This document shows positions 1 through 37,750 of a stretch of DNA of 64,000 nt, piece after piece. The stretch comes from Escherichia phage JEP8. Under the pieces are notes generated by a model. The model saw only the letters and a list, made by a program, of their open reading frames with translations. It ran no database searches and was not told the DNA's origin. The stretch lies in sequence record MT764208.1. One strand, 5' to 3'. Position 1 is the stretch's first letter. Every line of letters begins with the position of its first letter. A program made the translations under genes and the position numbers.

Positions 1-130
1 TATACTTTTTGTATGTACCGTGGTCGGCGTCATCCGCATTAAAGCAGACTACCTTATGACCTGCTTTAGCCCATTCTAGCCCCATTATCCCCGATCCGTC
101 AAAGTTGCAGAATATTAATTTTTGTTTCAT
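1..130 (-). CDS. hypothetical protein, partial (N-terminal 43 codons only; runs off window start)
   Basis: ATG at 128-130 overlaps the TGA of the upstream ORF (ATGA coupling); N-terminus ...NFDGSGIMG... is a glycine-rich loop; product not identifiable. Confidence 0.3.
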   Translation of the reverse strand, partial: MKQKLIFCNFDGSGIMGLEWAKAGHKVVCFNADDADHGTYKKY

Positions 131-372
131 ATACGACCCTTTAACCCAGCACAGATTTTAGTCGGTTCTTTACCGTGCCACATTAAGTAAAGTCCGTTAA
201 TGCGACCTTGTTTTGTGTGTGATTCTTTTCTGATCTTCTTATAGTGTCGTGCTTCCTCAACCGATTGTTTAGAATACCAATCATAAAGGAAGAGGCACAA
301 AGGCCAACCATTAGCGGCCTTAATGCAGTTATTAAGAAATTCCTTATTGCGTTTAATTAATTTTCTTTTCAC
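127..372 (-). CDS. hypothetical small early protein (81 aa)
   Basis: minus-strand ORF, abuts neighbouring ORFs in the same orientation. Confidence 0.45.
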   Translation of the reverse strand: MKRKLIKRNKEFLNNCIKAANGWPLCLFLYDWYSKQSVEEARHYKKIRKESHTKQGRINGLYLMWHGKEPTKICAGLKGRI

Positions 373-620
373 GCTGCCCCCATTGGTTTGATAGTAACAG
401 AATCTAAAAGACCTTTGTTAGCCAGTTCGCGGCAAGTTTTCAGATCCGCAACTTCCCAGCCAGCCGCAATCAGGTTATCAATCAGGCTGTTAGCAACTTC
501 TTCGCTCATGAAAGAGCACTGTTTGCCGATGGTGTAGCGTACACGCTGTAATTTCAGTTTACGGAAGCCTTTAACGTTCAGGTCTTTAGCGATTTTCTTT
601 GCGGTTTCGATGTTAGCCAT
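369..620 (-). CDS. hypothetical small early protein (83 aa)
   Basis: ORF preceded by conserved GGAGAATC RBS and promoter cassette at 661-689. Confidence 0.55.
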   Translation of the reverse strand: MANIETAKKIAKDLNVKGFRKLKLQRVRYTIGKQCSFMSEEVANSLIDNLIAAGWEVADLKTCRELANKGLLDSVTIKPMGAA

Positions 621-660
621 TGTTTGATTCTCCTAAGTGGTATCTCGTCTTGATGGTTGT

Positions 661-689
661 ATTGTAGGGGAGTTATCCTCCCCTGTCAA
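661..689 (-). promoter_or_regulatory. early sigma70-type promoter TTGACA-N17-TACAAT with palindromic spacer
   Basis: spacer GGGGAGGATAACTCCCC; A/T-rich tract upstream; drives 369..620. Confidence 0.6.
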
Positions 690-703
690 CACTTTTTATA
701 AAA

Positions 704-871
704 TTATTTGTTAATTTCTGGTGCGTTGCTAGGATAGTAACCTTCTTTAACTCCGAGGTATTTCGCAACCATCCCTACAATCTTCTGTGCTACTACAATG
801 TCAAATTTCAGATAATCTTCGCCGTGGGTTTCAATGATATATGCTTCACATGCTGCTTTAGTCTCGAACAT
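704..871 (-). CDS. hypothetical 55-aa protein, copy 1 of a duplicated gene (MFETKAACEAYIIETHGEDYLKFDIVVAQKIVGMVAKYLGVKEGYYPSNAPEINK)
   Basis: below the 60-aa track cutoff; hand-translated; near-identical to 3962..4129; RBS and promoter cassette upstream. Confidence 0.5.
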   Translation of the reverse strand: MFETKAACEAYIIETHGEDYLKFDIVVAQKIVGMVAKYLGVKEGYYPSNAPEINK

Positions 872-904
872 TTTGATTCTCCTATTTCGTTTCGGTATGT
901 GTGT

Positions 905-933
905 ATTATAGGGGATCTCCCGATCCCCGTCAA
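905..933 (-). promoter_or_regulatory. early promoter TTGACG-N17-TATAAT with palindromic spacer GGGATCGGGAGATCCCC
   Basis: consensus hexamers, 17-bp spacing; drives 704..871. Confidence 0.65.
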
Positions 934-947
934 CAACTTTTTTAAAA

Positions 948-1229
948 TTATTCGTGATTAGTTTCGATGTTGTGCATTTTGCACCAATTCAGCCAATCAC
1001 CCAGATCCTGATAGTTAATGCTTTTATCTGCTGCCATCGTTTTTGTCTTGATACCCATATGTGCGTTATGAGTAAGCATTTTTACAGTGAACTCAATTTT
1101 ATCGCCTTTAGCTTTAACATCAACCAGTTTGGTCCACTGGCTACCAGCGCCGCGAATGTTCATACCAACGATGTTTCCGATGTATGCTTCTTTGTTTTTC
1201 AGGATTTCGGTTGCTTTGATGAATTTCAT
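948..1229 (-). CDS. hypothetical small early protein (93 aa)
   Basis: ORF with upstream promoter cassette (1263-1291) and RBS. Confidence 0.5.
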   Translation of the reverse strand: MKFIKATEILKNKEAYIGNIVGMNIRGAGSQWTKLVDVKAKGDKIEFTVKMLTHNAHMGIKTKTMAADKSINYQDLGDWLNWCKMHNIETNHE

Positions 1230-1262
1230 TTTTGATTCTCCAGTTCGTTTCGGTATGGGTGT

Positions 1263-1291
1263 ATTATGCTATGTTCTTACTTTGGTGTCAA
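1263..1291 (-). promoter_or_regulatory. early promoter TTGACA-N17-CATAAT
   Basis: consensus -35, 17-bp spacer; drives 948..1229. Confidence 0.55.
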
Positions 1292-1299
1292 CAACTTTT

Positions 1300-1569
1300 T
1301 TAGATATTTTCAGAAATAAATTTTAAAACTTGACGTAAATGTTTCTCATCTTTGATAGTCGCCGGAAGTTCTTCTTTTACTTCCTGTGCAAGATAGATAT
1401 TTCCGTTCCAAGTGAAAGATCCGTCTTCGTTTACGCGATAGCTGAACATCCACTCGCAATCATTTTCGATTTCATATACACACAGAAGAGTGTAATCTTC
1501 AAAGCTATTGAGTTCAAGGTCGAAGCCGTGACGTTTTGCAAAGTTGGTAGTGGTTTTAGTCAGTGCCAT
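1300..1569 (-). CDS. hypothetical small early protein (89 aa)
   Basis: ORF with upstream promoter cassette (1610-1638) and RBS. Confidence 0.5.
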   Translation of the reverse strand: MALTKTTTNFAKRHGFDLELNSFEDYTLLCVYEIENDCEWMFSYRVNEDGSFTWNGNIYLAQEVKEELPATIKDEKHLRQVLKFISENI

Positions 1570-1609
1570 TGTTTGATTCTCCTAAGTGGTATCTCGTTTC
1601 GATGTGTGT

Positions 1610-1638
1610 ATTATGCTATAGGCGTGATCTGGTGTCAA
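1610..1638 (-). promoter_or_regulatory. early promoter TTGACA-N17-CATAAT
   Basis: drives 1300..1569. Confidence 0.55.
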
Positions 1639-1660
1639 TGCCTTTTTTAAAATTTTATGC

Positions 1661-1689
1661 AATAAAAAAGCCGACACTAAGGTCGGCTA
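1661..1689 (-). terminator. intrinsic terminator after 1696..2004
   Basis: hairpin AGCCGAC-N6-GTCGGCT followed by T6 on the minus strand. Confidence 0.6.
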
Positions 1690-1695
1690 ATAAAA

Positions 1696-2004
1696 TCATT
1701 TAGACAAATAATCATTCTGTGCAATCCGGTCGGCGTATGCTGGTGTTATGTCAATCGCCAGCACTTTAACGCGTGCTTTCTTGCGACCTGGGTTTTCTCG
1801 TAACCAGTGCTCATGGCCGTGAACATTTTTATACTGCGATGCTTCTTCGAAGGTACGGATCGGACCTGGGTAATCAGCGTAAAGGATCTCTAGATCTTCG
1901 GTGATGTAAAAATATACATCGTAATTGCTGTTCTCTAGCTTAAGCAGAGACTTTCGGAACATTGGGAGATTTTCGCGGGTAAATTCAAAGATATTATCTT
2001 TCAT
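1696..2004 (-). CDS. hypothetical protein, member 1 of a six-member paralog family (H-x-H-W ... V-L-A-[VI]-D-[VI] motif)
   Basis: shares ordered motifs Y-x-Y-[IV]-x-E/D, HxHW and VLA(V/I)D(V/I) with 2422, 2705, 3426, 4198, 4757; terminator hairpin downstream. Confidence 0.55.
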   Translation of the reverse strand: MKDNIFEFTRENLPMFRKSLLKLENSNYDVYFYITEDLEILYADYPGPIRTFEEASQYKNVHGHEHWLRENPGRKKARVKVLAIDITPAYADRIAQNDYLSK

Positions 2005-2052
2005 AGTATTATCCTCAATAGTTGGATGAAAAGGGGCTTAACGCCCCGTATA

Positions 2053-2340
2053 TTAAAACAGTCCTTCCTGTACACCGTAGTAGAGTTCATCGCTGATAAT
2101 TTCATTAATGCGACGGTGTGCATATTCCTGATTTGCGAAGTTGTCAGCAAGTTCTACTTTAGTTTCGCCGTCATGAGTCCATTTAGTGATAACTTTACCA
2201 TCGGCAAATTTGAAGTTGAACTCTTTAGCTACCGCATCGCGTACCAGACGTGCGAACTTGTTGTTACGGATTGCATTATCGGTTTCGTGTGCAGCGTGAG
2301 CAAATTTGTTAACTTTCAGAGTGATGGTGATGTATGCCAT
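2053..2340 (-). CDS. hypothetical small early protein (95 aa)
   Basis: ORF with promoter cassette 2387-2415 and RBS; AKEFN segment weakly shared with 5346..5657. Confidence 0.5.
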   Translation of the reverse strand: MAYITITLKVNKFAHAAHETDNAIRNNKFARLVRDAVAKEFNFKFADGKVITKWTHDGETKVELADNFANQEYAHRRINEIISDELYYGVQEGLF

Positions 2341-2386
2341 AATTTGATTCTCCTAGTTAGAAAGTGTATCTCGTTTCGATGGGTGT

Positions 2387-2415
2387 ATTATGCTATACAC
2401 CCGATCTTATGTCAA
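2387..2415 (-). promoter_or_regulatory. early promoter TTGACA-N17-CATAAT
   Basis: drives 2053..2340. Confidence 0.55.
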
Positions 2416-2421
2416 CACTTT

Positions 2422-2700
2422 TTATAAAATAATTTTTTGATATTTTTCTATGATGTTTGTGTAGGTCACATCAACCGCGAGCACCGTTGCTTCGAATCCA
2501 CCGTTTAGCCAATGGCTATGATCGTGATCGTTAAAGAAACCGAGGCCAGTGCGAAGACCTTCTTTATATTCGGCGCGTACATTCAGTTTGTCGTCGATAA
2601 ACAGATAAAACCATGAATTTTTACTAGGATTGATGATACAACCTTTCAGATTAGGGAGAATATCACGACTAAGAATAAACTTATCACCTACTTTGAACAT
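2422..2700 (-). CDS. hypothetical protein, paralog family member 2
   Basis: start trimmed to ATG at 2700 (MFKVGDKF...), preceded by GAGGA; motif HDHSHW...VLAVDV. Confidence 0.55.
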   Translation of the reverse strand: MFKVGDKFILSRDILPNLKGCIINPSKNSWFYLFIDDKLNVRAEYKEGLRTGLGFFNDHDHSHWLNGGFEATVLAVDVTYTNIIEKYQKIIL

Positions 2701-2704
2701 AATA

Positions 2705-3025
2705 TTAGTCCTCACTTATAAGGTCAAACCAATTGTTTTTCGCATAATGCTTAATGCGTGCTTGATCTGCTTCCGCTGGTGATAGATTCCATGCAACCAC
2801 TACAACTTCTGACGCATCGTCATCCGTTTTTGATACCCAATGATTGTGATTCATACAGTTATTTGCTATCGAGTGAGCAAATGATTTCATCACTGGAGAC
2901 GTATAATCATAGTAACGGATTTTCAGATTTTCATCAACATACAAGTAGATCGTATACGGCTTATATTCAGTAACCAATAACAGACAGTTACGCAATTCTG
3001 GGAAAATCTTTTTAGTTAATTTCAT
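2705..3025 (-). CDS. hypothetical protein, paralog family member 3
   Basis: motif NHNHW...VVVVAW; same length class and orientation as other members. Confidence 0.5.
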   Translation of the reverse strand: MKLTKKIFPELRNCLLLVTEYKPYTIYLYVDENLKIRYYDYTSPVMKSFAHSIANNCMNHNHWVSKTDDDASEVVVVAWNLSPAEADQARIKHYAKNNWFDLISED

Positions 3026-3239
3026 ATTCTAGTTCTCCGTAATACACAGTAATCCATTTTTCTTCATACTTTGTATCTTTCCAACACACAATCCCGTTTA
3101 CTGTGCAATCTTTGGAATTGACGAATGATTCATATTGTTCTGCATCTTCCATCATTGCATGAGCGGTCTTTTCATCGAATATATCGCAGATCGCTTTATA
3201 TGCTCGATAATCTTTAAATTTGCTCATAATTAACACCAC
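3012..3239 (-). CDS. hypothetical protein, MSKFK tandem paralog A
   Basis: N-terminus MSKFKDYRAY and central IVCWK shared with adjacent 3230..3445. Confidence 0.5.
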   Translation of the reverse strand: MVLIMSKFKDYRAYKAICDIFDEKTAHAMMEDAEQYESFVNSKDCTVNGIVCWKDTKYEEKWITVYYGELEYEIN

Positions 3240-3445
3240 TCAAGAGTTTTTGAAAACACATCTATCCATTGTTGAGTATATGCGGTTTCTTTCCATGACA
3301 CAATACCAGTCGAATAATGGTTTTTGTTTCCAGAAAAGGACGGGCATTTTGATGCATCTTCCATCATCTTTTCGGCGAACTCTGGTGCGTATACTCGCAA
3401 AATCTGTTGATATGCTTTGTATTCTTTAAATTTGCTCATAATCAT
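3230..3445 (-). CDS. hypothetical protein, MSKFK tandem paralog B
   Basis: N-terminus MSKFKEYKAY and central IVSWK; tandem to 3012..3239. Confidence 0.5.
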   Translation of the reverse strand: MIMSKFKEYKAYQQILRVYAPEFAEKMMEDASKCPSFSGNKNHYSTGIVSWKETAYTQQWIDVFSKTLEWC

Positions 3446-3704
3446 TCACTACCTTATCAGCTTCTTTTGTTGTTTTTACATCAACTGCGATAACTCGTAA
3501 AGGTTCGTCATGGTTCCACCAGTGGTCATGAATATCGGCTTGTGATTTATCACCAAAGGAATCACGAATATCATTTTTACATTTATAGCTAATGTGACCG
3601 TCATAGTCAACATAAAGGTAATTATCGAAAATCGGCGTTTTTAAGATCATACCGAAAAATCTTTCTTTGTGTGTCTTATCCAGCGTTGCAGTAATTCGCA
3701 TCAT
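3426..3704 (-). CDS. hypothetical protein, paralog family member 4
   Basis: motif HDHWW...VIAVDV. Confidence 0.55.
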   Translation of the reverse strand: MMRITATLDKTHKERFFGMILKTPIFDNYLYVDYDGHISYKCKNDIRDSFGDKSQADIHDHWWNHDEPLRVIAVDVKTTKEADKVVNDYEQI

Positions 3705-3716
3705 AATATATTCCTC

Positions 3717-3896
3717 TTAGAAAGGGATGGTCATTTCTTGAGCTTGTATGTTCTCGTTAGGATTAAACTTCATCCAACCGATATTGTCTACCAGCATATT
3801 TACATTTTTATCATATCCTACGTGAGTAGTCAACACTAAATGTGCTTTACCTTCAACGATGATTTCCATGTACTTCTGAACTTCGATAGCTTTCAT
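3717..3896 (-). CDS. hypothetical 59-aa protein
   Basis: hand-translated (MKAIEVQKYMEIIVEGK...); conserved RBS and promoter cassette 3930-3958 upstream. Confidence 0.45.
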   Translation of the reverse strand: MKAIEVQKYMEIIVEGKAHLVLTTHVGYDKNVNMLVDNIGWMKFNPNENIQAQEMTIPF

Positions 3897-3929
3897 TTTT
3901 GATTCTCCGTTTGTTGTCTTGATGGGAGT

Positions 3930-3958
3930 ATCTTACTACTCCCTTTAATCATTGTCAA
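3930..3958 (-). promoter_or_regulatory. early promoter TTGACA-N17-TAAGAT with GGGAGTAGTAAGATACTCCC hairpin
   Basis: drives 3717..3896; palindrome overlaps -10. Confidence 0.5.
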
Positions 3959-3961
3959 CTA

Positions 3962-4129
3962 TTATTTGTTAATTTCTGGTGCGTTGCTTGGATAGTAACC
4001 TTCTTTAACACCCAGATATTTTGCAACCATTCCGGTGATCTTCTGTGCTACTACGATATCGAATTTCAGGTAGTCTTCACCGTGGTTTGCTACAATGTAT
4101 GCTTCGCATTCTGCTTTAGTCGGGAACAT
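3962..4129 (-). CDS. hypothetical 55-aa protein, copy 2 of duplicated gene
   Basis: track ORF trimmed to internal ATG (MFPTKAECEAYIVANHGEDYLKFDIVVAQKITGMVAKYLGVKEGYYPSNAPEINK); about 85-90 percent nt identity to 704..871 by eye. Confidence 0.5.
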   Translation of the reverse strand: MFPTKAECEAYIVANHGEDYLKFDIVVAQKITGMVAKYLGVKEGYYPSNAPEINK

Positions 4130-4163
4130 TTTTGATTCTCCTATATCTCGTTGGTATGTGTGC

Positions 4164-4192
4164 ATTATAGGGGATCACCGATCCCCTGTCAA
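4164..4192 (-). promoter_or_regulatory. early promoter TTGACA-N17-TATAAT with palindromic spacer GGGGATCGGTGATCCCC
   Basis: drives 3962..4129. Confidence 0.65.
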
Positions 4193-4197
4193 CAACT

Positions 4198-4491
4198 TTA
4201 TAATGCTTTATATGCGTATTTCATAAATTTGTCTGCCACTTCATTGGCATGTTCAGCTTCTACGCCTGATTCGAGAACAATAGCTAGGTCGGTTTCGTCA
4301 TTCCCGCCGTACCAATGATTTGATGTTCGATTTTTTTCAATTGGAAATTGGTCACTTTTATCTGTGCGACAAAATACATCTAAATGCTCGTCGATGTAAA
4401 AGATCCAATCTTCATAAAGAATAACGGTATTAGCCAGATTTTTATTGCCTTCAACGAAAGGTTCGGCTACAAACAAATTAGTATGTTCCAT
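4198..4491 (-). CDS. hypothetical protein, paralog family member 5
   Basis: start trimmed to ATG 4491 (GAGGA upstream); motif SNHWYGG...LAIVLE. Confidence 0.5.
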   Translation of the reverse strand: MEHTNLFVAEPFVEGNKNLANTVILYEDWIFYIDEHLDVFCRTDKSDQFPIEKNRTSNHWYGGNDETDLAIVLESGVEAEHANEVADKFMKYAYKAL

Positions 4492-4507
4492 AGTAATTTC
4501 CTCAAAA

Positions 4508-4699
4508 TTATACAGCTTCGTAAACTTCCCAATGTCCAACACCAGCACGCTTAACGAAAAGGTTTTCTTTGATGTTATTCATAAACGTCTGGATGGATTT
4601 AATGCGGTTTGAAGGTTTCCATTCTTCGTTGGCATTGCGTCGATACATCATAACATTACCAGTTCGCTTATATTCAGCAACCATTTTAAGACCACACAT
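4508..4699 (-). CDS. hypothetical small protein (63 aa)
   Basis: ORF between family members; putative promoter 4751-4778 upstream. Confidence 0.4.
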   Translation of the reverse strand: MCGLKMVAEYKRTGNVMMYRRNANEEWKPSNRIKSIQTFMNNIKENLFVKRAGVGHWEVYEAV

Positions 4700-4750
4700 A
4701 ATATTATCCTCAATTTGTGGGAGAGTATTACCCCTCCCAATGATTGTTAT

Positions 4751-4778
4751 GTTATATCACACAAAATGGCGTGTCAAT
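4751..4778 (-). promoter_or_regulatory. putative early promoter TTGACA-N16-TATAAC
   Basis: weaker -10; upstream of 4508..4699. Confidence 0.35.
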
Positions 4779-5077
4779 GCTTCTTTTGCGGTTCCGCTAA
4801 GACTTTCGATCTCGCCTGGCATAACATCAACCGCCAGAACTTCTACAACATCCTCGGACCCTAACCAGTGAGTATGACCTTTGTAGAACTTGATAACCAG
4901 ACTACCTTCCTCGTCCCATTTAACGCTATCGCTAGCCCACCACACATCACCGTCGATAAAGTTGATGTAAAGCACACTACGCCACATTGAATTAATTACT
5001 TTCAATACTGCGCCTTTCATCTCTTCCACGGTATGGTCTTCCATTTTGAAGACCTCACCTACCTGAACTTTTGCCAT
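4757..5077 (-). CDS. hypothetical protein, paralog family member 6
   Basis: motif GHTHWLG...VLAVDV. Confidence 0.55.
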   Translation of the reverse strand: MAKVQVGEVFKMEDHTVEEMKGAVLKVINSMWRSVLYINFIDGDVWWASDSVKWDEEGSLVIKFYKGHTHWLGSEDVVEVLAVDVMPGEIESLSGTAKEALTRHFV

Positions 5078-5094
5078 TTAGTCACCTCTCTTTA

Positions 5095-5274
5095 TTACAT
5101 AACAATCACGCCAGCCGTTGAAAGTTGATGTTTCAACTGAGCATTTTCTGCTACCGTCAAATCAATGATTTCTTGTGACGCTGCAATCATATATCCATTG
5201 GTGATATTGTTTTGCATCAGTTCAATGGTTTCTTCGTTGTAGCGGATTTTAGCGATGATTTCGTTGAAGTTCAT
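5095..5274 (-). CDS. hypothetical 59-aa protein
   Basis: track ORF trimmed: N-terminal MLTGDHRSPIL is read-through of the promoter cassette; real start MNFNEII... after GGAGAATC. Confidence 0.45.
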   Translation of the reverse strand: MNFNEIIAKIRYNEETIELMQNNITNGYMIAASQEIIDLTVAENAQLKHQLSTAGVIVM

Positions 5275-5308
5275 GATTGATTCTCCTAGTTCGTTTCGGT
5301 ATGTGTGT

Positions 5309-5337
5309 AGTATAGGGGATCGGTGATCCCCTGTCAA
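5309..5337 (-). promoter_or_regulatory. early promoter TTGACA-N17-TATACT with palindromic spacer GGGGATCACCGATCCCC
   Basis: drives 5095..5274. Confidence 0.6.
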
Positions 5338-5345
5338 CAACTTTT

Positions 5346-5657
5346 TTAAAGTTTTTCCATGATAACGGTCATAATTACATCTTCTGCGCGAGCGGTCAGA
5401 TTATCAGCGTCAGCATGTGGGCGGTTGGTTGTTACAGAGATAACACCGTTGCGCACTGGTTTGATATTGATATCAAGATGATCCGCGAAACGTTCGCCAG
5501 TTACAGAATGAATTTTGGTGTTAAATTCTTTTGCCAGTGCCTTGCGAACTTCACGAATCAGGGTAGCGTTTTTCAGTTGGTTCTCCGCGCTCATGGTCTT
5601 CTGGGTGTTAATGGTTCCGTCGAAGTCAATCATTGGCAGCGTTACGATGTATTTCAT
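5346..5657 (-). CDS. hypothetical small early protein (103 aa)
   Basis: ORF with promoter cassette 5703-5731 and RBS. Confidence 0.5.
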   Translation of the reverse strand: MKYIVTLPMIDFDGTINTQKTMSAENQLKNATLIREVRKALAKEFNTKIHSVTGERFADHLDINIKPVRNGVISVTTNRPHADADNLTARAEDVIMTVIMEKL

Positions 5658-5702
5658 TTTTGATTCTCCGTTTAAGAAAGTGTGTTTCGTTTTGATGTGT
5701 GT

Positions 5703-5731
5703 AGTATAGGGGATACGTGATCCCCTGTCAA
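5703..5731 (-). promoter_or_regulatory. early promoter TTGACA-N17-TATACT with palindromic spacer GGGGATCACGTATCCCC
   Basis: drives 5346..5657. Confidence 0.6.
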
Positions 5732-5744
5732 CAACTTTTTTGAA

Positions 5745-6221
5745 TTATTTTTCTTGATGCTCGCGCTCGTACTTTTCGAAATAAAATTCTACTGGCTGGT
5801 CATGAATTGACAGCAAGCCAAAGCGTTTAGCCGCTCGCAATCCCATATTGCGCTGAATGTACTTCTGGAAGTTCTCGCGTATACACTTACGCCAGTATTC
5901 TAAGCCCATACAGCTTTTATAAAGATTGCATTGCACACACGCCGGATTCATGTTATCAAGTATATCATGCTCCGGTTTATGCATTCCTACGACCTTATAC
6001 TTCCACAATCCATCATCATTACGGGCAATTCGTCCATTTTCATCATAGACTACCTTTGAGCGTCGCAATACTGGTTTGATGTGGTCTGCGTGCCAGCGAT
6101 CCCCTAGTTCCTCGCCACAATAGGCACAACGTCCACCGTATTTCATTTTCAGGATCTGGCGTTGCTCTTTCTTTGACAATTTTTTAGGTTTAGGGGCTTT
6201 CGCCCCTTCATTATCACACAT
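5745..6221 (-). CDS. HNH-family endonuclease (free-standing)
   Basis: C-x2-C ... H-A-D-H-I-K-P ... C-V-Q-C-N signature; directly downstream of ligase; true start may be internal Met (MKYGGR...). Confidence 0.6.
   Translation of the reverse strand: MCDNEGAKAPKPKKLSKKEQRQILKMKYGGRCAYCGEELGDRWHADHIKPVLRRSKVVYDENGRIARNDDGLWKYKVVGMHKPEHDILDNMNPACVQCNLYKSCMGLEYWRKCIRENFQKYIQRNMGLRAAKRFGLLSIHDQPVEFYFEKYEREHQEK
6192..6207 (-). promoter_or_regulatory. RNA stem-loop GGGGCGAAAGCCCC (GAAA tetraloop) at the ligase 3' end
   Basis: same element as at 18921-18936 and 31041-31056. Confidence 0.45.
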
Positions 6222-7710
6222 CGAATACCTCTTTTACTGTATTTGCAGTGGTCTTGTCGTAGCGAATACGTTTGATGATTGGGAGAAATAAAGAGAACTC
6301 CGGTTCATCTTCTTTACGTGATTTGCTGCGAATGTACCCGTTGCATGTCATCTCAATGACTTTTCCAATCAGGTTATGACGGTCAGCCCATAACATTTCT
6401 CGGTCGAGTTCATTTCGACTATCGAACGGAATTACACGTTCGATACCATCATCACCTTTTTCGGTTGTGGTGTCGGTCAATCCCGATCCGGTGTTAGTCA
6501 TCATTCGTCCGCACGCACTACGGACAGTAAAACCGCCTACCTTATTAGGATCTTTACTATGCGGATATACATCAACAATTTCCGCGTCGAAGTCAATCAC
6601 TTCTTTAAATTTAACCTGATCTTTACTGCGACGATCTTCAAATACACCATGCAGATTTTTAAGGATAATACCTTCTAATCCCATGTTTACATAGCGATGA
6701 TATACTTCGCGAGCTTCATCGAGATTGTTAACTACGGTATTTTCGATTATCTGAACACGAGGATCGTTAAGTTCTTCAACAATCTGTTTTAGTTCTTCGA
6801 ATCGATCTTTATACTGCTTCGTTGCTTTCTCGTTACCGTAGTACACATCACGGTCGATAACATCCCAGACAGTGTAAACAATACATTGGGCTTCTTCTTT
6901 TGGAATAGTTCCTTTCAGTGATTTGTTGAGGATACCATTTCCGGTCTGACGATCTGCAACAACGGATTCTTTCACTGCTTCCGCTACTGGCGTTAATGGC
7001 ATTTCCTCTTCTTCAAATATCCATGACAGAGTACCATCATAAACGCTCTCAACGAAGTTCTGCGCTGGTGTTTGCGAAAGGGTAGGCATATATACCAATT
7101 CGCCATCTAGAACAATTCCACGGCCTCGTAGACGCTCTAAAACCGCAAACAAATCATCAAGCCCTTGATAGGTATTACCTGAGCGGGTATAGATTGCTAA
7201 TGTTTCCCCGTCAATATCAGCCATACCACGAGCGCCATCGCTTTTAAGTTGTGCATACGCCGGATACTTGATATTAGCAATAGTCTTATCAGAACATGAC
7301 GATGCAAGGTGGCACGGTTGCTGAGGGATCAGTTTCTTCCATACCTTGTTTGCAGTGGTAGCGGAACAGCCGCATTCCAGATCACGATTCAGGACCATCA
7401 TTGCAACTTTAGCATCATCCTCTGACAAGCAAGTCAGAGTATCGGTAACTAGTTGTAATGCTGCATTACCAGTTACTTGACGCGTGGCAAGTTTATTTTT
7501 AAAGACCTGTAATGCACCGGATAAAGACAATACAGACGAATAGCGAGATGGTTTATCGTATTTCTTTACGCCAAACGTAACCTGTTTGCAATATGCCAGA
7601 TAAAAGCATTCTTTCAGCGTTTCATTGCTCGCGGATTCTTTCAGAATCTTTTCTTTCAGCGATGTTTTGTCTGTTGCTGCAAGCTGATTAATGATATTAA
7701 GAATTGACAT
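6214..7710 (-). CDS. 30: ATP-dependent DNA ligase (T4 gp30 homolog)
   Basis: clear similarity along the length to T4 DNA ligase as recalled (KADGAR lysine motif, C-terminal LEGIILKN, KFKEVID); track start is GTG, trimmed to ATG 7710 preceded by GAGGTGA. Confidence 0.9.
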   Translation of the reverse strand: MSILNIINQLAATDKTSLKEKILKESASNETLKECFYLAYCKQVTFGVKKYDKPSRYSSVLSLSGALQVFKNKLATRQVTGNAALQLVTDTLTCLSEDDAKVAMMVLNRDLECGCSATTANKVWKKLIPQQPCHLASSCSDKTIANIKYPAYAQLKSDGARGMADIDGETLAIYTRSGNTYQGLDDLFAVLERLRGRGIVLDGELVYMPTLSQTPAQNFVESVYDGTLSWIFEEEEMPLTPVAEAVKESVVADRQTGNGILNKSLKGTIPKEEAQCIVYTVWDVIDRDVYYGNEKATKQYKDRFEELKQIVEELNDPRVQIIENTVVNNLDEAREVYHRYVNMGLEGIILKNLHGVFEDRRSKDQVKFKEVIDFDAEIVDVYPHSKDPNKVGGFTVRSACGRMMTNTGSGLTDTTTEKGDDGIERVIPFDSRNELDREMLWADRHNLIGKVIEMTCNGYIRSKSRKEDEPEFSLFLPIIKRIRYDKTTANTVKEVFDV

Positions 7711-8176
7711 TTTCACCTCGTTTTGTTAAACGTTCACGAATATCATTGAGGATACTACAAAATTCCGATTCAGTCAATATAGTCTTTAACGGATCAGTTC
7801 CACCTATACTATGACGCAATTTCTTATTTCCGGTAGCGAGTAATGCTTTACAAAATTCTGGGTTATTCCGTGCCATCGTAACAAATGCCAGATGTACCAG
7901 TCTGTAATAATGCTCACTCATTCGATGAATCGGGCGACCCTGAAAATATAACATGTGATTCTCTATCTTTTCGGTCCTTCCGGTTCTTTTTGCTTTGCCA
8001 CCGTGCATCAAAAAGATTTCTCTTTGTCTCTGAGGGTTCTTAAATCTTAGCCCCTGTAAAAATCCTTCTGTGCTGTTAATATCGCAACCAAATAGACGGA
8101 ATGGTCTTTTATTGAAATTACTCAATTCACCCGATGGATAAGGTCCACCCGCATAGATATCAATTTCAGAAGTCAT
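7697..8176 (-). CDS. NADAR-domain protein (YbiA-like)
   Basis: GELSNFN...F...STEGFLQGLRFK...ALLATGNKKL pattern matches YbiA/NADAR family segments. Confidence 0.6.
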   Translation of the reverse strand: MTSEIDIYAGGPYPSGELSNFNKRPFRLFGCDINSTEGFLQGLRFKNPQRQREIFLMHGGKAKRTGRTEKIENHMLYFQGRPIHRMSEHYYRLVHLAFVTMARNNPEFCKALLATGNKKLRHSIGGTDPLKTILTESEFCSILNDIRERLTKRGENVNS

Positions 8177-8412: not shown

Positions 8413-8736
8413 TTAACCGTAAACTACCACAATATTCTGTTTGTGCGTTACAGTCCATTTCAGGTCGATCTCTTCTTCCTTCTTAACGCCGTTAATAACG
8501 TCTGGATGAGGAACTTTATTCATCTTTCCATGTGGCAGTAAAACAGTTTTACCCAGCAATTCTTTATCTACCGTCTCGCCAATATCAATAATCTTACCTA
8601 CCAGCGGAATCTCACCCATAGTGCGCTTTTGCTCAATAATGATCCCCATAGAGCTTTTTACTTCGGTCCCTGCGCTTTCTGCTTTAGCTTCGATAATTAC
8701 ATAATCACCAAGTGCTTTAGGAGTTTTAACGGTCAT
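8413..8736 (-). CDS. 31: co-chaperonin GroES-like (T4 gp31 homolog)
   Basis: 107 aa, GroES-like pattern (LGDYVII...G.IIDIGE), position between ligase and cd as in T4. Confidence 0.75.
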   Translation of the reverse strand: MTVKTPKALGDYVIIEAKAESAGTEVKSSMGIIIEQKRTMGEIPLVGKIIDIGETVDKELLGKTVLLPHGKMNKVPHPDVINGVKKEEEIDLKWTVTHKQNIVVVYG

Positions 8737-9800: not shown

Positions 9801-10678
9801 TAAAAGTCTCCGTAGTTAACCTGAAAACATTCTACACCAATTGCGCGGTACATGTCAACCACTTGATCACGGTCATCTACTGCCAACACAACATGATAAC
9901 GCGGTGCAATTTCAGAGAAGAAAATCTCTTTCTTCACTTCATGGTCAGGACGACGATCATTAGTTTCACGTTGAAAGTGAACACTAGGTTCAATACCCTG
10001 TTCACGCAACCATTGCAGAGTATCTTCTTCGCAAACATCCTCACGCCCTGAGCATGTAATGATACGATAGCCATTATCACGATACAGTTTAAGCATTTCG
10101 ATCACTTGCGGACGTGGTTTATCTTCTTTGACCTTTGTCCAGTCAAACGGATGACGACCGCCCTTATCCGCTAATGTCCCATCAATATCAAAGATCACTG
10201 CCTTTGGCAGCATGGTATTCGGTTTGTATACTTCTTGACCCATATATTCCTGCATCAGATAAAATTGGTTACGCAAATGAGAAAGTGGGATTGCTTTCTC
10301 TCCACGATAGAAATTACGTTTCTTTAGTGTCTCGAATGATTCATTGAACACTTGTTCAGTATACACCGCGTTAAATTCTTTTGCAAGTTCTTTGTAGAAT
10401 ACACGATGTTTTTCTTTCAGGTTAGTATCAGAGATAATGATACTTAATCCGCGTGATAGAGTCTCACGAGCAATCATTCTCTGAATAGACTCTACCAGCT
10501 TTTCTTTTTCCTTAGTATACTTGTATTTCAAATGTGAGTCAACACCAAACAACATAAGACGAAGGTCATCACGATTAACATTACGATAATTACTAAACCG
10601 TTTACATGTCTCCATAGCCCATGTAGTTTTACCGGACCCAGAACAACCAACGGTTAAAATCACTTCACATTTCGGCAT
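9800..10678 (-). CDS. pseT: polynucleotide 5'-kinase / 3'-phosphatase
   Basis: N-terminal P-loop GCSGSGKTT and C-terminal HAD motif DIDGTLAD; track start GTG trimmed to ATG 10678 (TAATG overlap with upstream gene). Confidence 0.9.
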   Translation of the reverse strand: MPKCEVILTVGCSGSGKTTWAMETCKRFSNYRNVNRDDLRLMLFGVDSHLKYKYTKEKEKLVESIQRMIARETLSRGLSIIISDTNLKEKHRVFYKELAKEFNAVYTEQVFNESFETLKKRNFYRGEKAIPLSHLRNQFYLMQEYMGQEVYKPNTMLPKAVIFDIDGTLADKGGRHPFDWTKVKEDKPRPQVIEMLKLYRDNGYRIITCSGREDVCEEDTLQWLREQGIEPSVHFQRETNDRRPDHEVKKEIFFSEIAPRYHVVLAVDDRDQVVDMYRAIGVECFQVNYGDF

Positions 10679-27294: not shown

Positions 27295-30200
27295 ATGGCA
27301 GATTTTTCTCAACATTTCAAGGCCACATTTGGCTTTGACGCTGGTAATGAAAAGGTCGTCAATGTAGCATTGGCTGATAAGAATGTCAACACCGATGCGG
27401 TCAACGTTGAATTTTTCAATTACCATAATGGTATTACTCAGTATGACACAACTCGCGGTTATGATCAATACGGAACTACAATCTATCAAAACCGTCCGTA
27501 TTATGCAAAAGAAGATATCACAAAACCAGCAGGTGATTTTGACCCGACTAAATGGCAAGCACTGCGCACGGACCCACGTTGGGATTATATTGCAGCAACT
27601 TCCGGTGATACTCCTTTACAGTCTGGTGATTATATCGCAGCAGATGGTCAATTTGCAAACTTGACTTTCTCTATGCCAACTAAACCAGCAGAGGGAGACA
27701 CTATAACAGTAAAAGATATCGGTGGCAAGTGTGGTGTTAACGAATTATCGTTCTTGAGTTCAGGACATGAGTTTTACCATAACGGTAATGTGTATAACCG
27801 AAAATGGTATTGCACTACCCCGTATGCAATGAACTATTTCATCTTTGTTCGTAATCGTTGGCATGTTTATCAGACAGGAACAGAGCCACGCGGTGTGTAC
27901 GCACAGCCAGCGATTGATGCTATTCAAATGCAGAATGGTGATCAGGTCTTTCGTCGTAGTTCGTTGGGTAATATTACCTTAGTGCTTCCTAAGTTTGCCA
28001 ACAATGGCGACATGATCCAGACTACAGACCTTGACGGATTAACCGCAACCAACCACGTTACGGTTAAAGTTCATGAGCACGCAGAAGAACAATCAATTGG
28101 CACGTCCGGTCTAAAAGAGATTATCGGTAAGCGTAGCGGTCATGGTGTATTCATCTTTGACAAGACGGAAAACTTATGGCGTTTGTGGGATGGTGATCAG
28201 TCTGTTCGTCTTAAACCGATCATCGATGACACTCGCTTGCAACCTAATAGCTATGTTGCTGTATTTGGTGGTCGTGATGTTACTCTGACGCTGCCGACCA
28301 ATGTCGAGCCGGGTGATCGTATTCAAGTTTCTATGCAGTATATGCACGGAAACCAGAATTGCCGTATTATCACCCCCACAGAGGATACAAAAATCCTTAT
28401 GCAGAAAAACATGGTTCAGTTTCCTAAGCGTAGCGAGTACCCATTCAATGGGACCGATACATGGACTGGAGTGTCTGAATTGTCTTTCAACGCTGCAAAT
28501 GATTATGTACCTTATCTGGAGTTCTCTTATTCAGAAGGTGATGATGGTAAGAAATACTGGTTGGTGGCACATGCTCACCCGATTGTAGAACGAGTAGATC
28601 CGACTCGTAAAGACCGTGTTGGTGTAATTGCACTGGCTACCCAGGATGAAACAAACAAAAACCATGAAGATAATCCTAGCGACGAAGTTGCGGTGACTCC
28701 AAAGGTTCTGGCTAATAAAACAGCCAACGAAACTCGACGCGGTATTGCTCGCATTGCAACTCAAGCGGAAACGCATCAAGATACTGGTTCCAACTTCCTG
28801 GATGATGTTATCGTTACGCCTAAAAAGTTAAATGACTGTGTTGCTACCGAAGCCCGTCGTGGTGTGATGGAAATTGCAACCCAGCACGAAACCAATGAAG
28901 GTTTAGACGATACCCGCGCTATTACTCCTAAGAAATTAGAAGAACGTCGCGCTTCCGAAGATCTCGCTGGTATTGCTGAAATTGTTCAGGTTGGCGGTAG
29001 TGCTGCCGCTCGACGTGGCGAAGCTGGTACAGGGATCTATAACATCAACGACCATGCTAAAATTGTTACGCCAAAAAACATCAACGAGGTCAAGGCGACC
29101 GAAACTTCCCGTGGTGTTGGCTATCTGGCAACTGACGCGGAAGTGCAAGGGGCTACAGAATCAACCCCGCAAGATGCTTTACTAATCACGACTCGCACGC
29201 TAACGAAACGTACTGCTACCGAATCGCGCACTGGTATCGCTGAAATTGCAACTCAGGAAGAAACAAACTTAGGTCAAAGTGATAACCATATCATCACGCC
29301 TAAAAAGCTGCATACTCGCCGCGCAACGGAAACTTTACACGGTTTAGCAGAAATTGCAACTCAGCCGGAATTTGACGCAGGTCTTGACGATGCTCGCATT
29401 TCTACCCCATTGAAGATTAAAACCTTCTTTGAGAATGCACAGCGTTTGAAAGTAGATCCGACTCAGGGGCTTAACCTTACTGGTGATTTGTGGCAAGGTA
29501 TCATGATCCGTGGTCTGGACGCAACCGAAGACACAAAAGGTGTCGCTAAAGTTGCTACTACTCAGCTTACGGATGCTGGTCAAGATGATACTACAATCAT
29601 CACGCCTAAAAAGCTGCAAGACAAAAAGGCCACAGAAGGTAAAGAAGGTATTATCCGAGTTGGTACTCAAGCCGAAACCGTGGCTGGTACACTGGCTAAT
29701 GTAGCAATTTCTCCGAAGAACTTCAAATATGTTGTTCAGACAGAGGATACATGGAAAGCAACCGAAGCGCGTCGTGGTTTCTTGAAAGTTGCCACTCAGG
29801 AAAACTGTTTTGTTGGTGATAATCTGCAAGGTTCTACTCAAGAACTAGGAAACTACCAGCATGACGGAATTGCTGTTACTCCTAAAGGATTAAACTACGC
29901 TCTTGCTAATTTCTTACCTAAGATGGCAACCGCTCAGAATAGTTTGAAATTGGGTAACGTAGAGGCCGCTAAATGGGCGCGTAGAGACATTGACCAGACC
30001 ATAGAGAGCAATTACACGTTTAATAAAAACGTTAACGTGAAGGGCGATTTAGGGTGCTTAAAATCCGGTTCCTTTGAAACTCTGTCTGTGACTAAGAACT
30101 CTACTGATGTTCCGAGTAATGGTCATCTGGTGTTGGGTGAGCGTGGAGTTGACGGTCACACCGGAATTACATTGCATGGCACAACCGCATCGGAAGGCAT

Positions 30201-31035
30201 GAAAAACTCCTGGTCTATTATCGTTGGTGGTACTGGAACGGCGCAAGCAGTTAATAGTGGCGCTATCGCTTTCGGTCAAATCAATGATGGTGGAGTCGTC
30301 GAGCATTACGCCTTTGCTATGGAACACAATGGCGACGCGACAGCATATAGAGACTTTATTGCAGGTCGCAACCTGTATGCGAAACAAGGCGGTTTATACA
30401 TTGTTGACCAGTCTAATCCGGCAATGACTCGTTCCCCAGATGGTATGCTGAATATCGGTCACGGTGGAAGTGTTAACATCAAGGCAGGTCATCAAACGTT
30501 AACTACAGAGATCGCCGGACAGAAATATCAGATCGTACACGCAGGAAACGCCGACGAAGTTCTTAACCGTCGGTTTGTTAAGAATGCTGGCGATACAATG
30601 GTCGGTAAGCTGACTATGGATAATGCGCCTATTGTTTCTGTTAAACATGAAGCTAGCGCGGCAACCGCTCCGGCAATTGGTAACATCGGTTTCTGGAATA
30701 TGCGAGTTACTACCCAGAACATCAAAGAAACTTATCCAGAGAAGAAAAACGGTACTCTGATGCAATGGGGTACTGACGCGGACGGGCTTACCCAGCTTTG
30801 GTCCCCTGATGGTACTCATAAACATTATATCCGTTCCGGTACTGGTGGTCAATGGACCGCATGGGGTGAAATTTACACCAAACAGAATAAGCCTACCGCT
30901 CAGGAAATCGGGGCAGTAGTTGCAGAAGGTGGTTTAATGAACTCTATGACGGTGCGTGACTGGATCAAGGTTGGTAATGTTAAAATCATCGCCAATAATC
31001 TGACTCGTACCGTAGATTTTATCTGGGAAGACTAA
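27295..31035 (+). CDS. 34: long tail fibre proximal subunit (T4 gp34 homolog)
   Basis: 1246 aa; extensive blocks shared with T4 gp34 (ISTPLKIKT, SPKNFK...TW.A, RRGIARIAT repeats, C-terminal VRDWIKVGNV). Confidence 0.93.
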   Translation: MADFSQHFKATFGFDAGNEKVVNVALADKNVNTDAVNVEFFNYHNGITQYDTTRGYDQYGTTIYQNRPYYAKEDITKPAGDFDPTKWQALRTDPRWDYIAATSGDTPLQSGDYIAADGQFANLTFSMPTKPAEGDTITVKDIGGKCGVNELSFLSSGHEFYHNGNVYNRKWYCTTPYAMNYFIFVRNRWHVYQTGTEPRGVYAQPAIDAIQMQNGDQVFRRSSLGNITLVLPKFANNGDMIQTTDLDGLTATNHVTVKVHEHAEEQSIGTSGLKEIIGKRSGHGVFIFDKTENLWRLWDGDQSVRLKPIIDDTRLQPNSYVAVFGGRDVTLTLPTNVEPGDRIQVSMQYMHGNQNCRIITPTEDTKILMQKNMVQFPKRSEYPFNGTDTWTGVSELSFNAANDYVPYLEFSYSEGDDGKKYWLVAHAHPIVERVDPTRKDRVGVIALATQDETNKNHEDNPSDEVAVTPKVLANKTANETRRGIARIATQAETHQDTGSNFLDDVIVTPKKLNDCVATEARRGVMEIATQHETNEGLDDTRAITPKKLEERRASEDLAGIAEIVQVGGSAAARRGEAGTGIYNINDHAKIVTPKNINEVKATETSRGVGYLATDAEVQGATESTPQDALLITTRTLTKRTATESRTGIAEIATQEETNLGQSDNHIITPKKLHTRRATETLHGLAEIATQPEFDAGLDDARISTPLKIKTFFENAQRLKVDPTQGLNLTGDLWQGIMIRGLDATEDTKGVAKVATTQLTDAGQDDTTIITPKKLQDKKATEGKEGIIRVGTQAETVAGTLANVAISPKNFKYVVQTEDTWKATEARRGFLKVATQENCFVGDNLQGSTQELGNYQHDGIAVTPKGLNYALANFLPKMATAQNSLKLGNVEAAKWARRDIDQTIESNYTFNKNVNVKGDLGCLKSGSFETLSVTKNSTDVPSNGHLVLGERGVDGHTGITLHGTTASEGMKNSWSIIVGGTGTAQAVNSGAIAFGQINDGGVVEHYAFAMEHNGDATAYRDFIAGRNLYAKQGGLYIVDQSNPAMTRSPDGMLNIGHGGSVNIKAGHQTLTTEIAGQKYQIVHAGNADEVLNRRFVKNAGDTMVGKLTMDNAPIVSVKHEASAATAPAIGNIGFWNMRVTTQNIKETYPEKKNGTLMQWGTDADGLTQLWSPDGTHKHYIRSGTGGQWTAWGEIYTKQNKPTAQEIGAVVAEGGLMNSMTVRDWIKVGNVKIIANNLTRTVDFIWED

Positions 31036-31040
31036 TTAAA

Positions 31041-31056
31041 GGGGGCGAAAGCCCCC
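31041..31056 (+). promoter_or_regulatory. RNA stem-loop GGGGGCGAAAGCCCCC (GAAA tetraloop) between genes 34 and 35
   Basis: perfect 6-bp GC stem with GNRA loop immediately after gene 34 stop; same element recurs at 6192-6207 and 18921-18936. Confidence 0.55.
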
Positions 31057-31068
31057 TATGGGGTTATT

Positions 31069-32208
31069 ATGACACAAGATATAGAATTACGCAACACTGG
31101 AATTAGGTTTGCGCATTTCGATGAGGACTCCGCGACATTTACCAGCATTTCAGAAAACAACTCTGTGATGTATAAGCTGGAAGTGCGCGGATCTAATGCG
31201 GATTCTACCAAACCAGCAAGGATTAGATTTAATGGAGTGGAGATCGTTGGCACTGGCTATGAAAATGGCCTAAATTTTAAAGTTCTTACTCCAACTGGAC
31301 AACTACACGAAGAAAAGGTATTCTATGGTCGCGGTGCTGTTTTGGCAATGCGTGATTATCTTTCTTTGCTGAAAGGTGACTATATCATTGCGATGGCAAC
31401 GCATGGAGAATTGTTTGCAGATCCGGTAAGTGATGTTGTATTTTCTAAGCTGGGTTCTGTATCATTCCCGAATCACATTTTGTTACAGCAAATGCCTCGT
31501 GTATCCTATGCAGCAATTTATTCTACGAAAATGGGTAAAATTGTGTGCGAAGGTATGCAAGCGACCCACGGGGAAGGACAAGATTCATCTATACAAATTG
31601 AGAAAGTCTATGATACTATAGATGATCTTGCTATAACAGGAACACCACAACGATTTTTAGATTATCCGGTTGAGTATGTTAGCGAAGATGCCGAACATTT
31701 CGAGCTAATACAATGGCCTCACGATGAGATCAGCGCCCCACTTGAGGATTTTAACATAAAGGCAGGTGACAAACTATCAATATCCTTTGAATTGTTCCGT
31801 GATAGTGCCGCAGCCGCAGCCAACGTAACAGCGCGTTTCTATCACAACTACTTCACCGATGGACAATATAAAACTGGTGTTCGATACAATGCCAGCAAAA
31901 AAGATCAATGGGAAAAGTTTGAAGCCGTCTATACCGTACCGGAAGGAGTTGATAGTGTAGTAACTGGTTGTATCAGATATCCAACCAACTCAAATGAAGG
32001 TATTGTTAAAATTAGAAACATACTAATAACGCCGATCAGTGGAGTCGTCAAAACTACTGGTCCTACTTCATTTGGTGTTAATGGTGTTAGAACAACTCAT
32101 ATTCAGGATAACGGTGATTTTACTAACCCTGTAATGAGTCTTCTTAAGCTGCCTAGAGACAATAAACATATCACATCCAACAACTTTAAAGAGTTCGATG
32201 TTGATTAA
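31069..32208 (+). CDS. 35: long tail fibre hinge connector (T4 gp35 homolog)
   Basis: 379 aa (T4 gp35 372 aa) in the gene 35 position. Confidence 0.8.
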   Translation: MTQDIELRNTGIRFAHFDEDSATFTSISENNSVMYKLEVRGSNADSTKPARIRFNGVEIVGTGYENGLNFKVLTPTGQLHEEKVFYGRGAVLAMRDYLSLLKGDYIIAMATHGELFADPVSDVVFSKLGSVSFPNHILLQQMPRVSYAAIYSTKMGKIVCEGMQATHGEGQDSSIQIEKVYDTIDDLAITGTPQRFLDYPVEYVSEDAEHFELIQWPHDEISAPLEDFNIKAGDKLSISFELFRDSAAAAANVTARFYHNYFTDGQYKTGVRYNASKKDQWEKFEAVYTVPEGVDSVVTGCIRYPTNSNEGIVKIRNILITPISGVVKTTGPTSFGVNGVRTTHIQDNGDFTNPVMSLLKLPRDNKHITSNNFKEFDVD

Positions 32209-32218
32209 CATTTTTTTA

Positions 32219-32250
32219 CAAGCCGATCCATGTGGTCGGCTTTATTTTTA
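32219..32250 (+). terminator. putative intrinsic terminator after gene 35
   Basis: hairpin AGCCGA-N9-TCGGCT followed by TTATTTTTAT. Confidence 0.55.
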
Positions 32251-32370
32251 TACAGTTGGTTAAAATGTAACCAAAACGAAGAAAGATCTTTAGAATAATA
32301 GAAAATTTGTTTCGGTTAAAAATTAGTCAGTGCCTACGGCACGTCGCGAAGCGATATTTTGTTAACATTC

Positions 32371-32378
32371 TATAAATA
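32371..32378 (+). promoter_or_regulatory. T4-type late promoter TATAAATA for gene 36
   Basis: exact TATAAATA ~33 nt upstream of gene 36 ATG. Confidence 0.65.
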
Positions 32379-32411
32379 CTCGGAACTATAACTAATTTTT
32401 GAGGTTACTTT

Positions 32412-33902: not shown

Positions 33903-33906
33903 TTTT

Positions 33907-33927
33907 AGCGGGGATTATCTCCCCGCT
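33907..33927 (+). promoter_or_regulatory. stem-loop AGCGGGGA-ttatc-TCCCCGCT between genes 36 and 37
   Basis: 8-bp stem followed by TTTTC; possible attenuator or RNA-stability element. Confidence 0.4.
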
Positions 33928-33972
33928 TTTCTAAATAATGTTATTCTAATAACCGTTTAAGGATTTTATAAA

Positions 33973-36741: not shown

Positions 36742-36781
36742 GGAAACTCCCAGGGAAGGGAACTACTAAGGAGAAACGGCT

Positions 36782-37021: not shown

Positions 37022-37054
37022 GAGTACACTGTCATAGTTATCTTAGGGCATTAT

Positions 37055-37711: not shown

Positions 37712-37714
37712 CTT

Positions 37715-37750
37715 AAAGGGGAAGCCTTTCGGCCTCCCCTTCTTTTTATT
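37715..37750 (+). terminator. putative intrinsic terminator after holin (convergent junction)
   Basis: GC-rich hairpin (AAGGGGAAGCC/GGCCTCCCCTT) followed by CTTTTTATT. Confidence 0.55.

Follow-up and report, generated by a model that had tools for sequence, protein, structure and literature searches.

Six small genes of Escherichia phage JEP8 are ancient, diverged paralogs of a single family that is restricted to one lineage, Krischvirus (RB49-like, T4-type coliphages) and its close T4-like relatives. They lie on the minus strand between positions 1696 and 5077 of a 64,000 nt stretch of the JEP8 genome (GenBank accession number MT764208.1), which was analysed over its full length and is referred to here as the window. 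A prediction made from the letters of the window, before any database search, had named six open reading frames (ORFs), all of which are present, and had grouped them by shared motifs; they are numbered here as members 1 to 6 in order of position. For reasons given below, we lean tentatively towards the view that their products are early binding proteins aimed at the host or at its defences.

A family of six diverged paralogs

Homology among the six was examined using leave-one-out profiles, in which a hidden Markov model (HMM) built from five members was run against the full set of 632 stop-to-stop ORFs in the window. In 6/6 runs the best non-training match was the member that had been left out, with E values of 9.1e-15 for member 1 (at 1696), 5.2e-9 for member 2 (2422), 9.7e-11 for member 3 (2705), 1.9e-6 for member 4 (3426), 2.1e-3 for member 5 (4198) and 8.3e-8 for member 6 (4757), and every other window ORF had an E value of at least 0.03. 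In multiple alignments, three motifs keep a common order and register across the members, namely [FY]-[IV]-D, then H-x-H-W, then V-[LIV]-A-x-[DN]-[VIL], and a regular expression that combines the family motifs matches only these ORFs of the window. In the numbering of member 1, His66 and Trp67 are invariant in the alignments and His64 is nearly so. The H-x-H-W motif occurs five times in the 53,204 residues of the six-frame ORFs of the window, when 0.56 occurrences are expected, and all five fall in family ORFs at equivalent positions. Chance similarity of the six ORFs is therefore rejected by the profiles and the motif counts, and the original prediction was right both in proposing a six-member paralog family and in claiming a conserved order of motifs, as the motif positions proved equivalent in the alignments.

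The weakest of the six is member 5, in which the signature is degenerate, the first His having been lost (RTSNHW) and the last motif reading VLESGV. Its orthologues in other Krischviruses are ~70% identical and retain DTHNHW and VLASDV, and because the orthologous group carries these motifs member 5 is assigned to the family. No seventh member was found in the window using the family HMM, and the neighbouring ORFans g1300, g948 and g2053 reached an hhalign probability of no more than 0.4% against the family.

The paralogs share only 16–31% amino acid identity with one another and there are no DNA-level repeats between them, which indicates that the duplications are old and leads us to reject recent duplication or gene conversion among the members. 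This is confirmed by a diverged metagenomic relative (contig L004), in which counterparts of at least four of the paralog types are already recognizable.

Member 1 (1696..2004, 102 aa) is of the RB49p197 type, carries HGHEHW and VLAIDI and matches phrog_9345, as does member 3 (2705..3025, 106 aa; RB49p200 type), which has MNHNHW and VVAWNL. Member 2 (2422..2700, 92 aa; RB49p199 type) has HDHSHW and VLAVDV and falls in phrog_17255, while member 4 (3426..3704, 92 aa; RB49p203 type), with DIHDHW and VIAVDV, falls in phrog_15972. Member 5 (4198..4491, 97 aa; RB49p206 type) corresponds to phrog_15965, and member 6 (4757..5077, 106 aa; RB49p208 type), with KGHTHW and VLAVDV, to phrog_16486. The longest ORF of member 2 extends to a GTG at 2715 and that of member 5 to 4548. 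The starts were moved to the ATG codons at 2700 and 4491, respectively, because of the position of the ribosome-binding sites, the coverage of the PHROG profiles (phrog_17255 spans residues 6-97 of the long member 2 ORF and phrog_15965 residues 20-116 of the member 5 ORF) and the RB49 and ELT3 annotations. A separate GAGG-type ribosome-binding site precedes each of the six members. The block comprising member 4, g3230, g3012, member 3 and member 2 is tightly packed, with overlaps of 20, 10 and 14 nt; member 4 overlaps its downstream gene by 20 nt and member 3 shares 14 nt with the gene upstream of it. As read from the sequence, this packing is consistent with translational coupling.

A six-residue in-frame indel (EEGSLV present or absent) distinguishes member 6, at 4820-4900, from the orthologues P0059 and P0063. 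It is polymorphic across Krischvirus genomes and lies in the loop just before HxHW.

Early promoters and gene cassettes

In ~58 Krischvirus genomes, the sequence corresponding to window positions 1500–5400 is present at 94–98% identity. The RB49 counterpart of the six-gene stretch sits between alt, whose product is annotated as an RNA-polymerase ADP-ribosyltransferase, and gene 30 (DNA ligase), and every gene of this RB49 stretch is on the window minus strand and is annotated 'hypothetical protein'. In T4 the same interval holds one small gene, alt.1, and hence the alt–gene 30 junction has been expanded in Krischvirus. The interval is one of the published hyperplastic regions of RB49 and phi1 (PMC2839356).

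A repeat of ~70 nt, found in seven copies in the 1–6 kb part of the window, joins a GC-rich stem-loop to a sigma70 promoter that is close to the consensus and lies on the coding strand. Such promoter and stem-loop units, termed PeSLs, act as early promoters and terminators, flank non-essential ORFans and mediate cassette shuffling in the RB49/phi1 region (Arbiol et al. 2010, PMC2839356). Repeat units of 55 and 70 nt lie at 640-709, 884-953, 1255-1309, 1589-1658, 2366-2435, 4143-4212, 5288-5357 and 5682-5751. The sigma70 promoters inside them, all on the minus strand, are at 661-689, 905-933, 1263-1291, 1610-1638, 2387-2415, 4164-4192, 5309-5337 and 5703-5731 and match the consensus at 11/12 and 12/12 positions. 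The PeSLs are followed by a common 5′ untranslated region ending in GGAGAATCAAA-ATG.

The promoter at 5309..5337 (TTGACA-17-TATACT) heads a cassette running from g5095 through member 6 and g4508 to member 5, and that at 4164..4192 (12/12 consensus), directly downstream of member 5, heads g3962. A promoter-like site on the minus strand at 3930-3958 heads g3717, member 4, g3230, g3012, member 3 and member 2. From the promoter at 2387..2415 the order is g2053, a hairpin and member 1, which is thus the second gene of a PeSL cassette and has terminator-like hairpins on both sides. The first of these, a GC hairpin with a T-run (2033..2047, minus strand), lies between g2053 and member 1, and the equivalent site in phage G2494 is annotated as a terminator; the other, also a hairpin with a T-run on the minus strand (1669..1688), comes right after member 1, with the next PeSL promoter at 1610-1638. 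It is a reasonable inference from the sigma70-type PeSL promoters on the coding strand, together with the published PeSL assays, that the members are expressed early, and these promoters and the hyperplastic region between alt and gene 30 (PMC2839356) bear out the original prediction of an early-region location.

The family genes share the region, and the regulatory cassettes, with the PeSL ORFan cassettes of RB49 and phi1 (PMC2839356; Comeau et al. 2014, PMC4122927), and they resemble these in being small, presumably non-essential, lineage-specific ORFs subject to cassette or allele exchange between close phages. They differ in that none of the six is ever the first gene after a PeSL or stands behind the GGAGAATCAAA-ATG leader; each is second or later in a multi-gene cassette and has its own ribosome-binding site. 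We therefore reject the idea that members are single-gene mobile cassettes lying between two PeSLs. The paralogy of the six genes is not mentioned in either Arbiol et al. 2010 (PMC2839356) or Comeau et al. 2014 (PMC4122927).

Three further pairs of ORFan paralogs lie in the region, making it look like a patchwork of old segmental duplications. They belong to phrog_8009 (704-871 and 3962-4129, 85% nucleotide identity over 172 nt), phrog_8471 (in tandem, 3012-3239 and 3230-3445) and phrog_7474 (2053-2340 and 5346-5657).

Purifying selection and exchange of old alleles

Ratios of non-synonymous to synonymous substitution (dN/dS), calculated by the Nei–Gojobori method for the window paired with each of six other Krischvirus genomes, were 0.03–0.37 across all six paralogs, with member 1 at 0.18-0.37. 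Each paralog is thus kept by purifying selection. The copy number was exactly six in 7/7 Krischvirus loci scanned. A T4-like contig with a ligase 72% identical to that of the window (L013) has two members, likewise between ligase and alt, and no member was found in the region of T4 examined (genes 27 to cd.5).

Variation of another kind is seen in whole alleles. Member 5 falls into two allele classes that are ~70% identical and have a dS >1. In a 168.9 kb Krischvirus contig (ENA ERZ27275844, L011), whose ligase is 99% identical to that of the window, the slots of member 3 and member 2 (10001-10674) are filled by two member-3-type alleles that are 45% and 54% identical. As judged from these sequences, very old, diverged alleles are exchanged between near-identical genomes, with purifying selection within alleles, a pattern that fits modular shuffling through PeSLs and is reminiscent of other phage accessory loci with multiple alleles. 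The claim that the paralogs are diversifying therefore fails if it means positive selection, given the low dN/dS and the stable six copies, but holds in the sense of exchange of diverged alleles.

Could the genes simply be dispensable cargo of this shuffling, ORFans that persist by hitch-hiking or duplication and play no host-directed role? The setting would suit such an explanation, as the region is a hyperplastic one in which ORFans are gained, lost and exchanged by PeSL recombination (PMC2839356) and where several other small paralog pairs share the same stretch. However, purifying selection acts on 6/6 members, all the Krischviruses examined have kept exactly six copies, the diverged relative already has at least four of the paralog types, the signature residues are invariant, and the members are not themselves the PeSL-proximal genes. 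We consider this explanation improbable.

Distribution of the family

A word-index search of 5.8 billion proteins recovered 90 clusters, all of them orthologues (at least 55% identity) of one of the six paralogs, and when 1.84 billion cluster representatives were searched exhaustively with an HMMER profile, only 20 clusters were recovered at E <= 1e-3. Seeding a second search with the most distant members brought in nothing further, and scans of IMG/VR with P0096 and P0099 returned nothing. These wider searches thus yielded only orthologues or alleles, together with 13 metagenomic members that are diverged. Every context examined for the wider matches was a ligase–alt region of a T4-like contig; genes neighbouring the family in relatives include those for Alt ADP-ribosyltransferases, a DNA methyltransferase and a GmrSD_N/DUF262 protein. 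Among cultured phages, only Krischvirus records had matches.

The same proteins are annotated in all Krischvirus records (RB49 genes p197, p199, p200, p203, p206 and p208), and their PHROG matches are full-length, with E values of 4.6e-49 to 1.7e-72. The five PHROGs concerned (9345, 17255, 15972, 15965 and 16486) are all listed as 'unknown function' and match one another only weakly (E 2e-5 to 1e-2); they are kept as five separate orphan groups, in contrast to the one family found here. Pfam, NCBIfam and PADLOC yielded no significant match for the six proteins, nor for 23 diverse members; matches to Pfam-A and NCBIfam below the cut-off were weak, scattered and never common to two members. A search of the literature found no paper on these genes or on their paralogy. 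The family appears on sequence comparison to be a previously undescribed grouping, and no relatives outside the phage lineage were detected in sequence databases or among solved structures.

Predicted structure and candidate functions

An AlphaFold2 model of member 1, built from a 27-sequence alignment, has a mean predicted local distance difference test score (pLDDT) of 84 and a predicted template modelling score of 0.79, and includes five strands and four helices. The N-terminal part comprises a short strand, a short helix, strands 19-23, 29-34 and 40-45, and helix 52-56; the C-terminal part comprises a short helix containing HEHWL (64-68), strand 78-84 (RVKVLAI) and helix 88-100. In this model the ~95 aa proteins are predicted to form a single alpha+beta domain. 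The proteins are soluble, neutral to acidic (pI 4.2–6.8 for most) and have no conserved Cys.

The YxYxD motif corresponds to the beta-hairpin 29-45 and its turn, and VLAxDV to the last strand, which is followed by an [ST]-P-x-E-A-D helix cap. Because they fall at a hairpin turn and at a strand and helix cap in the model, these two motifs probably have structural roles. The Asp positions in both vary (D/N/T/G) among the members, and a four-ligand metal or catalytic site is therefore not established. The HxHW motif lies between helix 52-56 and strand 78-84, in the segment that has the lowest confidence and is the most variable in length. Within each orthologous group H-x-H-W is invariant, and variable sites are concentrated immediately on either side of it and at the two ends of the protein. 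Of the conserved His and Asp residues that the original prediction took as signs of a small metal-binding or catalytic fold, the His residues are thus the best candidates for a functional site, but the variable Asp positions probably serve the structure.

No catalytic or metal-binding fold was recognized in sequence-profile or structure searches, and the model of member 1 had no significant match among solved structures. Several known folds with His-containing sites were considered individually. The 2H phosphoesterases (LigT/CPDase/Acb1-like) have two H-x-[ST]-x motifs in a pseudo-symmetric two-lobe fold of ~180 aa; here there is one H-x-H-W per ~95 aa domain and CNPase appeared only as Foldseek noise (E 2.5–3.4, template modelling score ~0.2), so the proteins were not assigned to this group. 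A papain-like/C39/Cif cysteine peptidase fold was discarded, as neither a conserved catalytic Cys with His and Asp/Asn/Gln nor a significant structural match was found. HNH endonucleases have a beta-beta-alpha-metal motif with spaced His...Asn...His residues, and were rejected because in the family the residues are contiguous, the middle one varies (N/D/E/S/T) and there is no match to PF01844.

The best PDB match, by sequence profile, was to the streptococcal histidine-triad protein PhtD (E 0.41), which pairs Y..DGYIF...H.HW with YxYxD...HxHW. The Pht repeat is similar in that a short His-rich motif follows a Y-x-x-D segment resembling a beta-hairpin, and the family could on this basis be regarded as a homologue of the Pht zinc-binding unit. 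However, the match is not significant, hhalign against three Pht triad units gave a probability of 12.7% over 11 columns, the Pht motif is HxxHxH rather than HxH, the Pfam model Strep_his_triad (PF04270) matches 0/23 members and there is no structural match. Homology to Pht, which we would hold to be barely credible, is therefore rejected.

Small metal-dependent enzymes, such as hydrolases or phosphoesterases acting on a nucleotide, a signalling molecule or nucleic acid through a site made of HxH and an Asp or Asn, possibly across a dimer, would account for the (nearly) invariant H-[ND]-H-W, for its presence in every orthologous group and for the acidic residues in YxYxD and VLAxDV, which are mostly conserved. 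A fusion of two family domains in tandem, described below, would be compatible with a two-lobed active site. Against this, no enzyme family or fold was matched, the Asp positions are not fixed, and the paralog that lacks the first His is still under purifying selection. Furthermore, a length of ~95 aa is unusually short for an enzyme acting on its own, and six paralogs at such low identity with variable rims resemble binders more. An enzymatic function thus seems unlikely.

The members may instead be early regulators of the phage programme or of host expression, that is, small factors that bind nucleic acid or RNA polymerase and are not defence inhibitors. In T4, numerous small early proteins are known to redirect the machinery of the host, and the setting, driven by early promoters in a T4-type phage and flanked by the RNA polymerase modifier Alt, would be appropriate; one member 2 orthologue also carries an HHpred-type database label, 'KOW2-KOW3 of Spt5'. 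On the other hand, the mostly neutral-to-acidic pI argues against direct binding of nucleic acid, no KOW/SH3 or similar domain was found by Pfam or fold search, and swapping of alleles among near-identical phages is unexpected for core regulators. We do not think this a likely role.

Two fused ORFs from metagenomic contigs bear on how the domains might be arranged. P0091 (203 aa, contig L004) contains two family domains in tandem, with two more members directly after it. In L005 (Logan contig SRR8048112), a 260-aa ORF at 318-1100 joins two 70-aa domains of the phrog_8471 type and one member in frame. The window counterparts of its parts (g3230, g3012 and a member) are adjacent and overlapping, and the fusion could point to a functional link, or stop codons may simply have been lost. 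Together, such fusions may hint that the domains act as dimers and in concert with their neighbours.

Other features of the window

Directly downstream of the DNA ligase gene (6214-7716, minus strand) is a free-standing HNH endonuclease gene of 158 aa (5745-6221, minus strand), which overlaps it by 8 nt and has the same label in RB49 and relatives. The conserved core that flanks the hyperplastic region is marked by a homologue of T4 gene 30.3 (7697-8176, minus strand; its L011 equivalent carries PF08010 Phage_30_3) and a gene for a gp31-type head-assembly co-chaperonin (8413-8736, minus strand). At ~870-950 the window lacks RB49 ORF192 (477 nt; 3332-3808 in RB49, L001), and is arranged there as in phi1 and ELT3; ORF192 is an ORFan excised as a PeSL mini-circle (Arbiol et al., PMC2839356). 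At ~28000-38000, a positive GC skew and a GC content of up to 0.44–0.46 over ~10 kb suggest a block of plus-strand genes in an otherwise minus-strand window. No tRNA or tmRNA genes were found in positions 1-64000 and no Rfam families reached the gathering threshold anywhere in the 64,000 nt.

Possible role

T4-type phages have hundreds of small early ORFans, and those that have been characterized often inhibit host machinery or immunity. The reading that we favour, while giving it somewhat less than even weight, is that the family consists of non-essential early binding proteins directed at the host or at host defence, in which HxHW would form a metal, ligand or partner centre and variable loops would set specificity. 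The conserved beta-core would present the invariant His-x-His-Trp loop as the likely contact centre, and the sequence-variable segments around it, which differ between paralogs and between alleles, would probably determine the target. The working unit may be a dimer, as the tandem two-domain metagenomic protein suggests, and six paralogs together with the swapping of diverged alleles could provide breadth against variable host targets. The anti-defence part of this proposal, which was also part of the original prediction, is inferred from genomic context; no sequence or structural match was found to known anti-defence or defence proteins (e.g. Tad2, Acr, PADLOC models). A bolder form of it, which we regard as doubtful, is that the proteins have a new fold and make up an early battery of inhibitors or sponges, each paralog, as a monomer, homodimer or heterodimer, using HxHW (possibly with a metal) against one immune component or signalling nucleotide, with allele swaps tuning which E. 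coli defences are neutralized.

Several observations weigh against a role in binding host or defence targets, or against parts of it. Strict invariance is limited to His66 and Trp67, which is too little to define a complete metal site, and one of the window paralogs is without the first His. Only one fused ORF, P0091, underlies the proposal of a dimer, and its AlphaFold2 model, made from the single sequence and no alignment, has a pLDDT of 34. The early timing of the members rests on promoter type. Finally, rapidly diversifying anti-defence genes do not usually have an unvarying copy number or dN/dS values far below 1.

Counterparts for such a locus can be found among the T-even phages and, more widely, among phage accessory or anti-defence loci that exist as many alleles. 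The internal-protein (IP) loci of T-even phages are confined, variable, multi-allelic accessory loci with a presumed adaptive or defensive role. They are discussed in PMC2839356 and would be analogous in having small lineage-specific proteins, a confined variable locus and exchange of diverged alleles. They are different in that there is no sequence or structural relation, and in that the family described here has a fixed copy number and well-conserved orthologues.

The family is new but its kind, the accessory genes of phage hyperplastic regions, is familiar, and such a finding is in itself unsurprising. It does, though, bring six 'hypothetical proteins' spread over five PHROGs into one defined family with an invariant signature of two to three residues. 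A confident model to which no solved structure is significantly similar, a layout fixed at six copies and natural allele replacement make the six genes a compact set of testable targets in a phage genus that is used in therapy cocktails, and the family is a reasonable candidate for tests of host- or defence-targeting.

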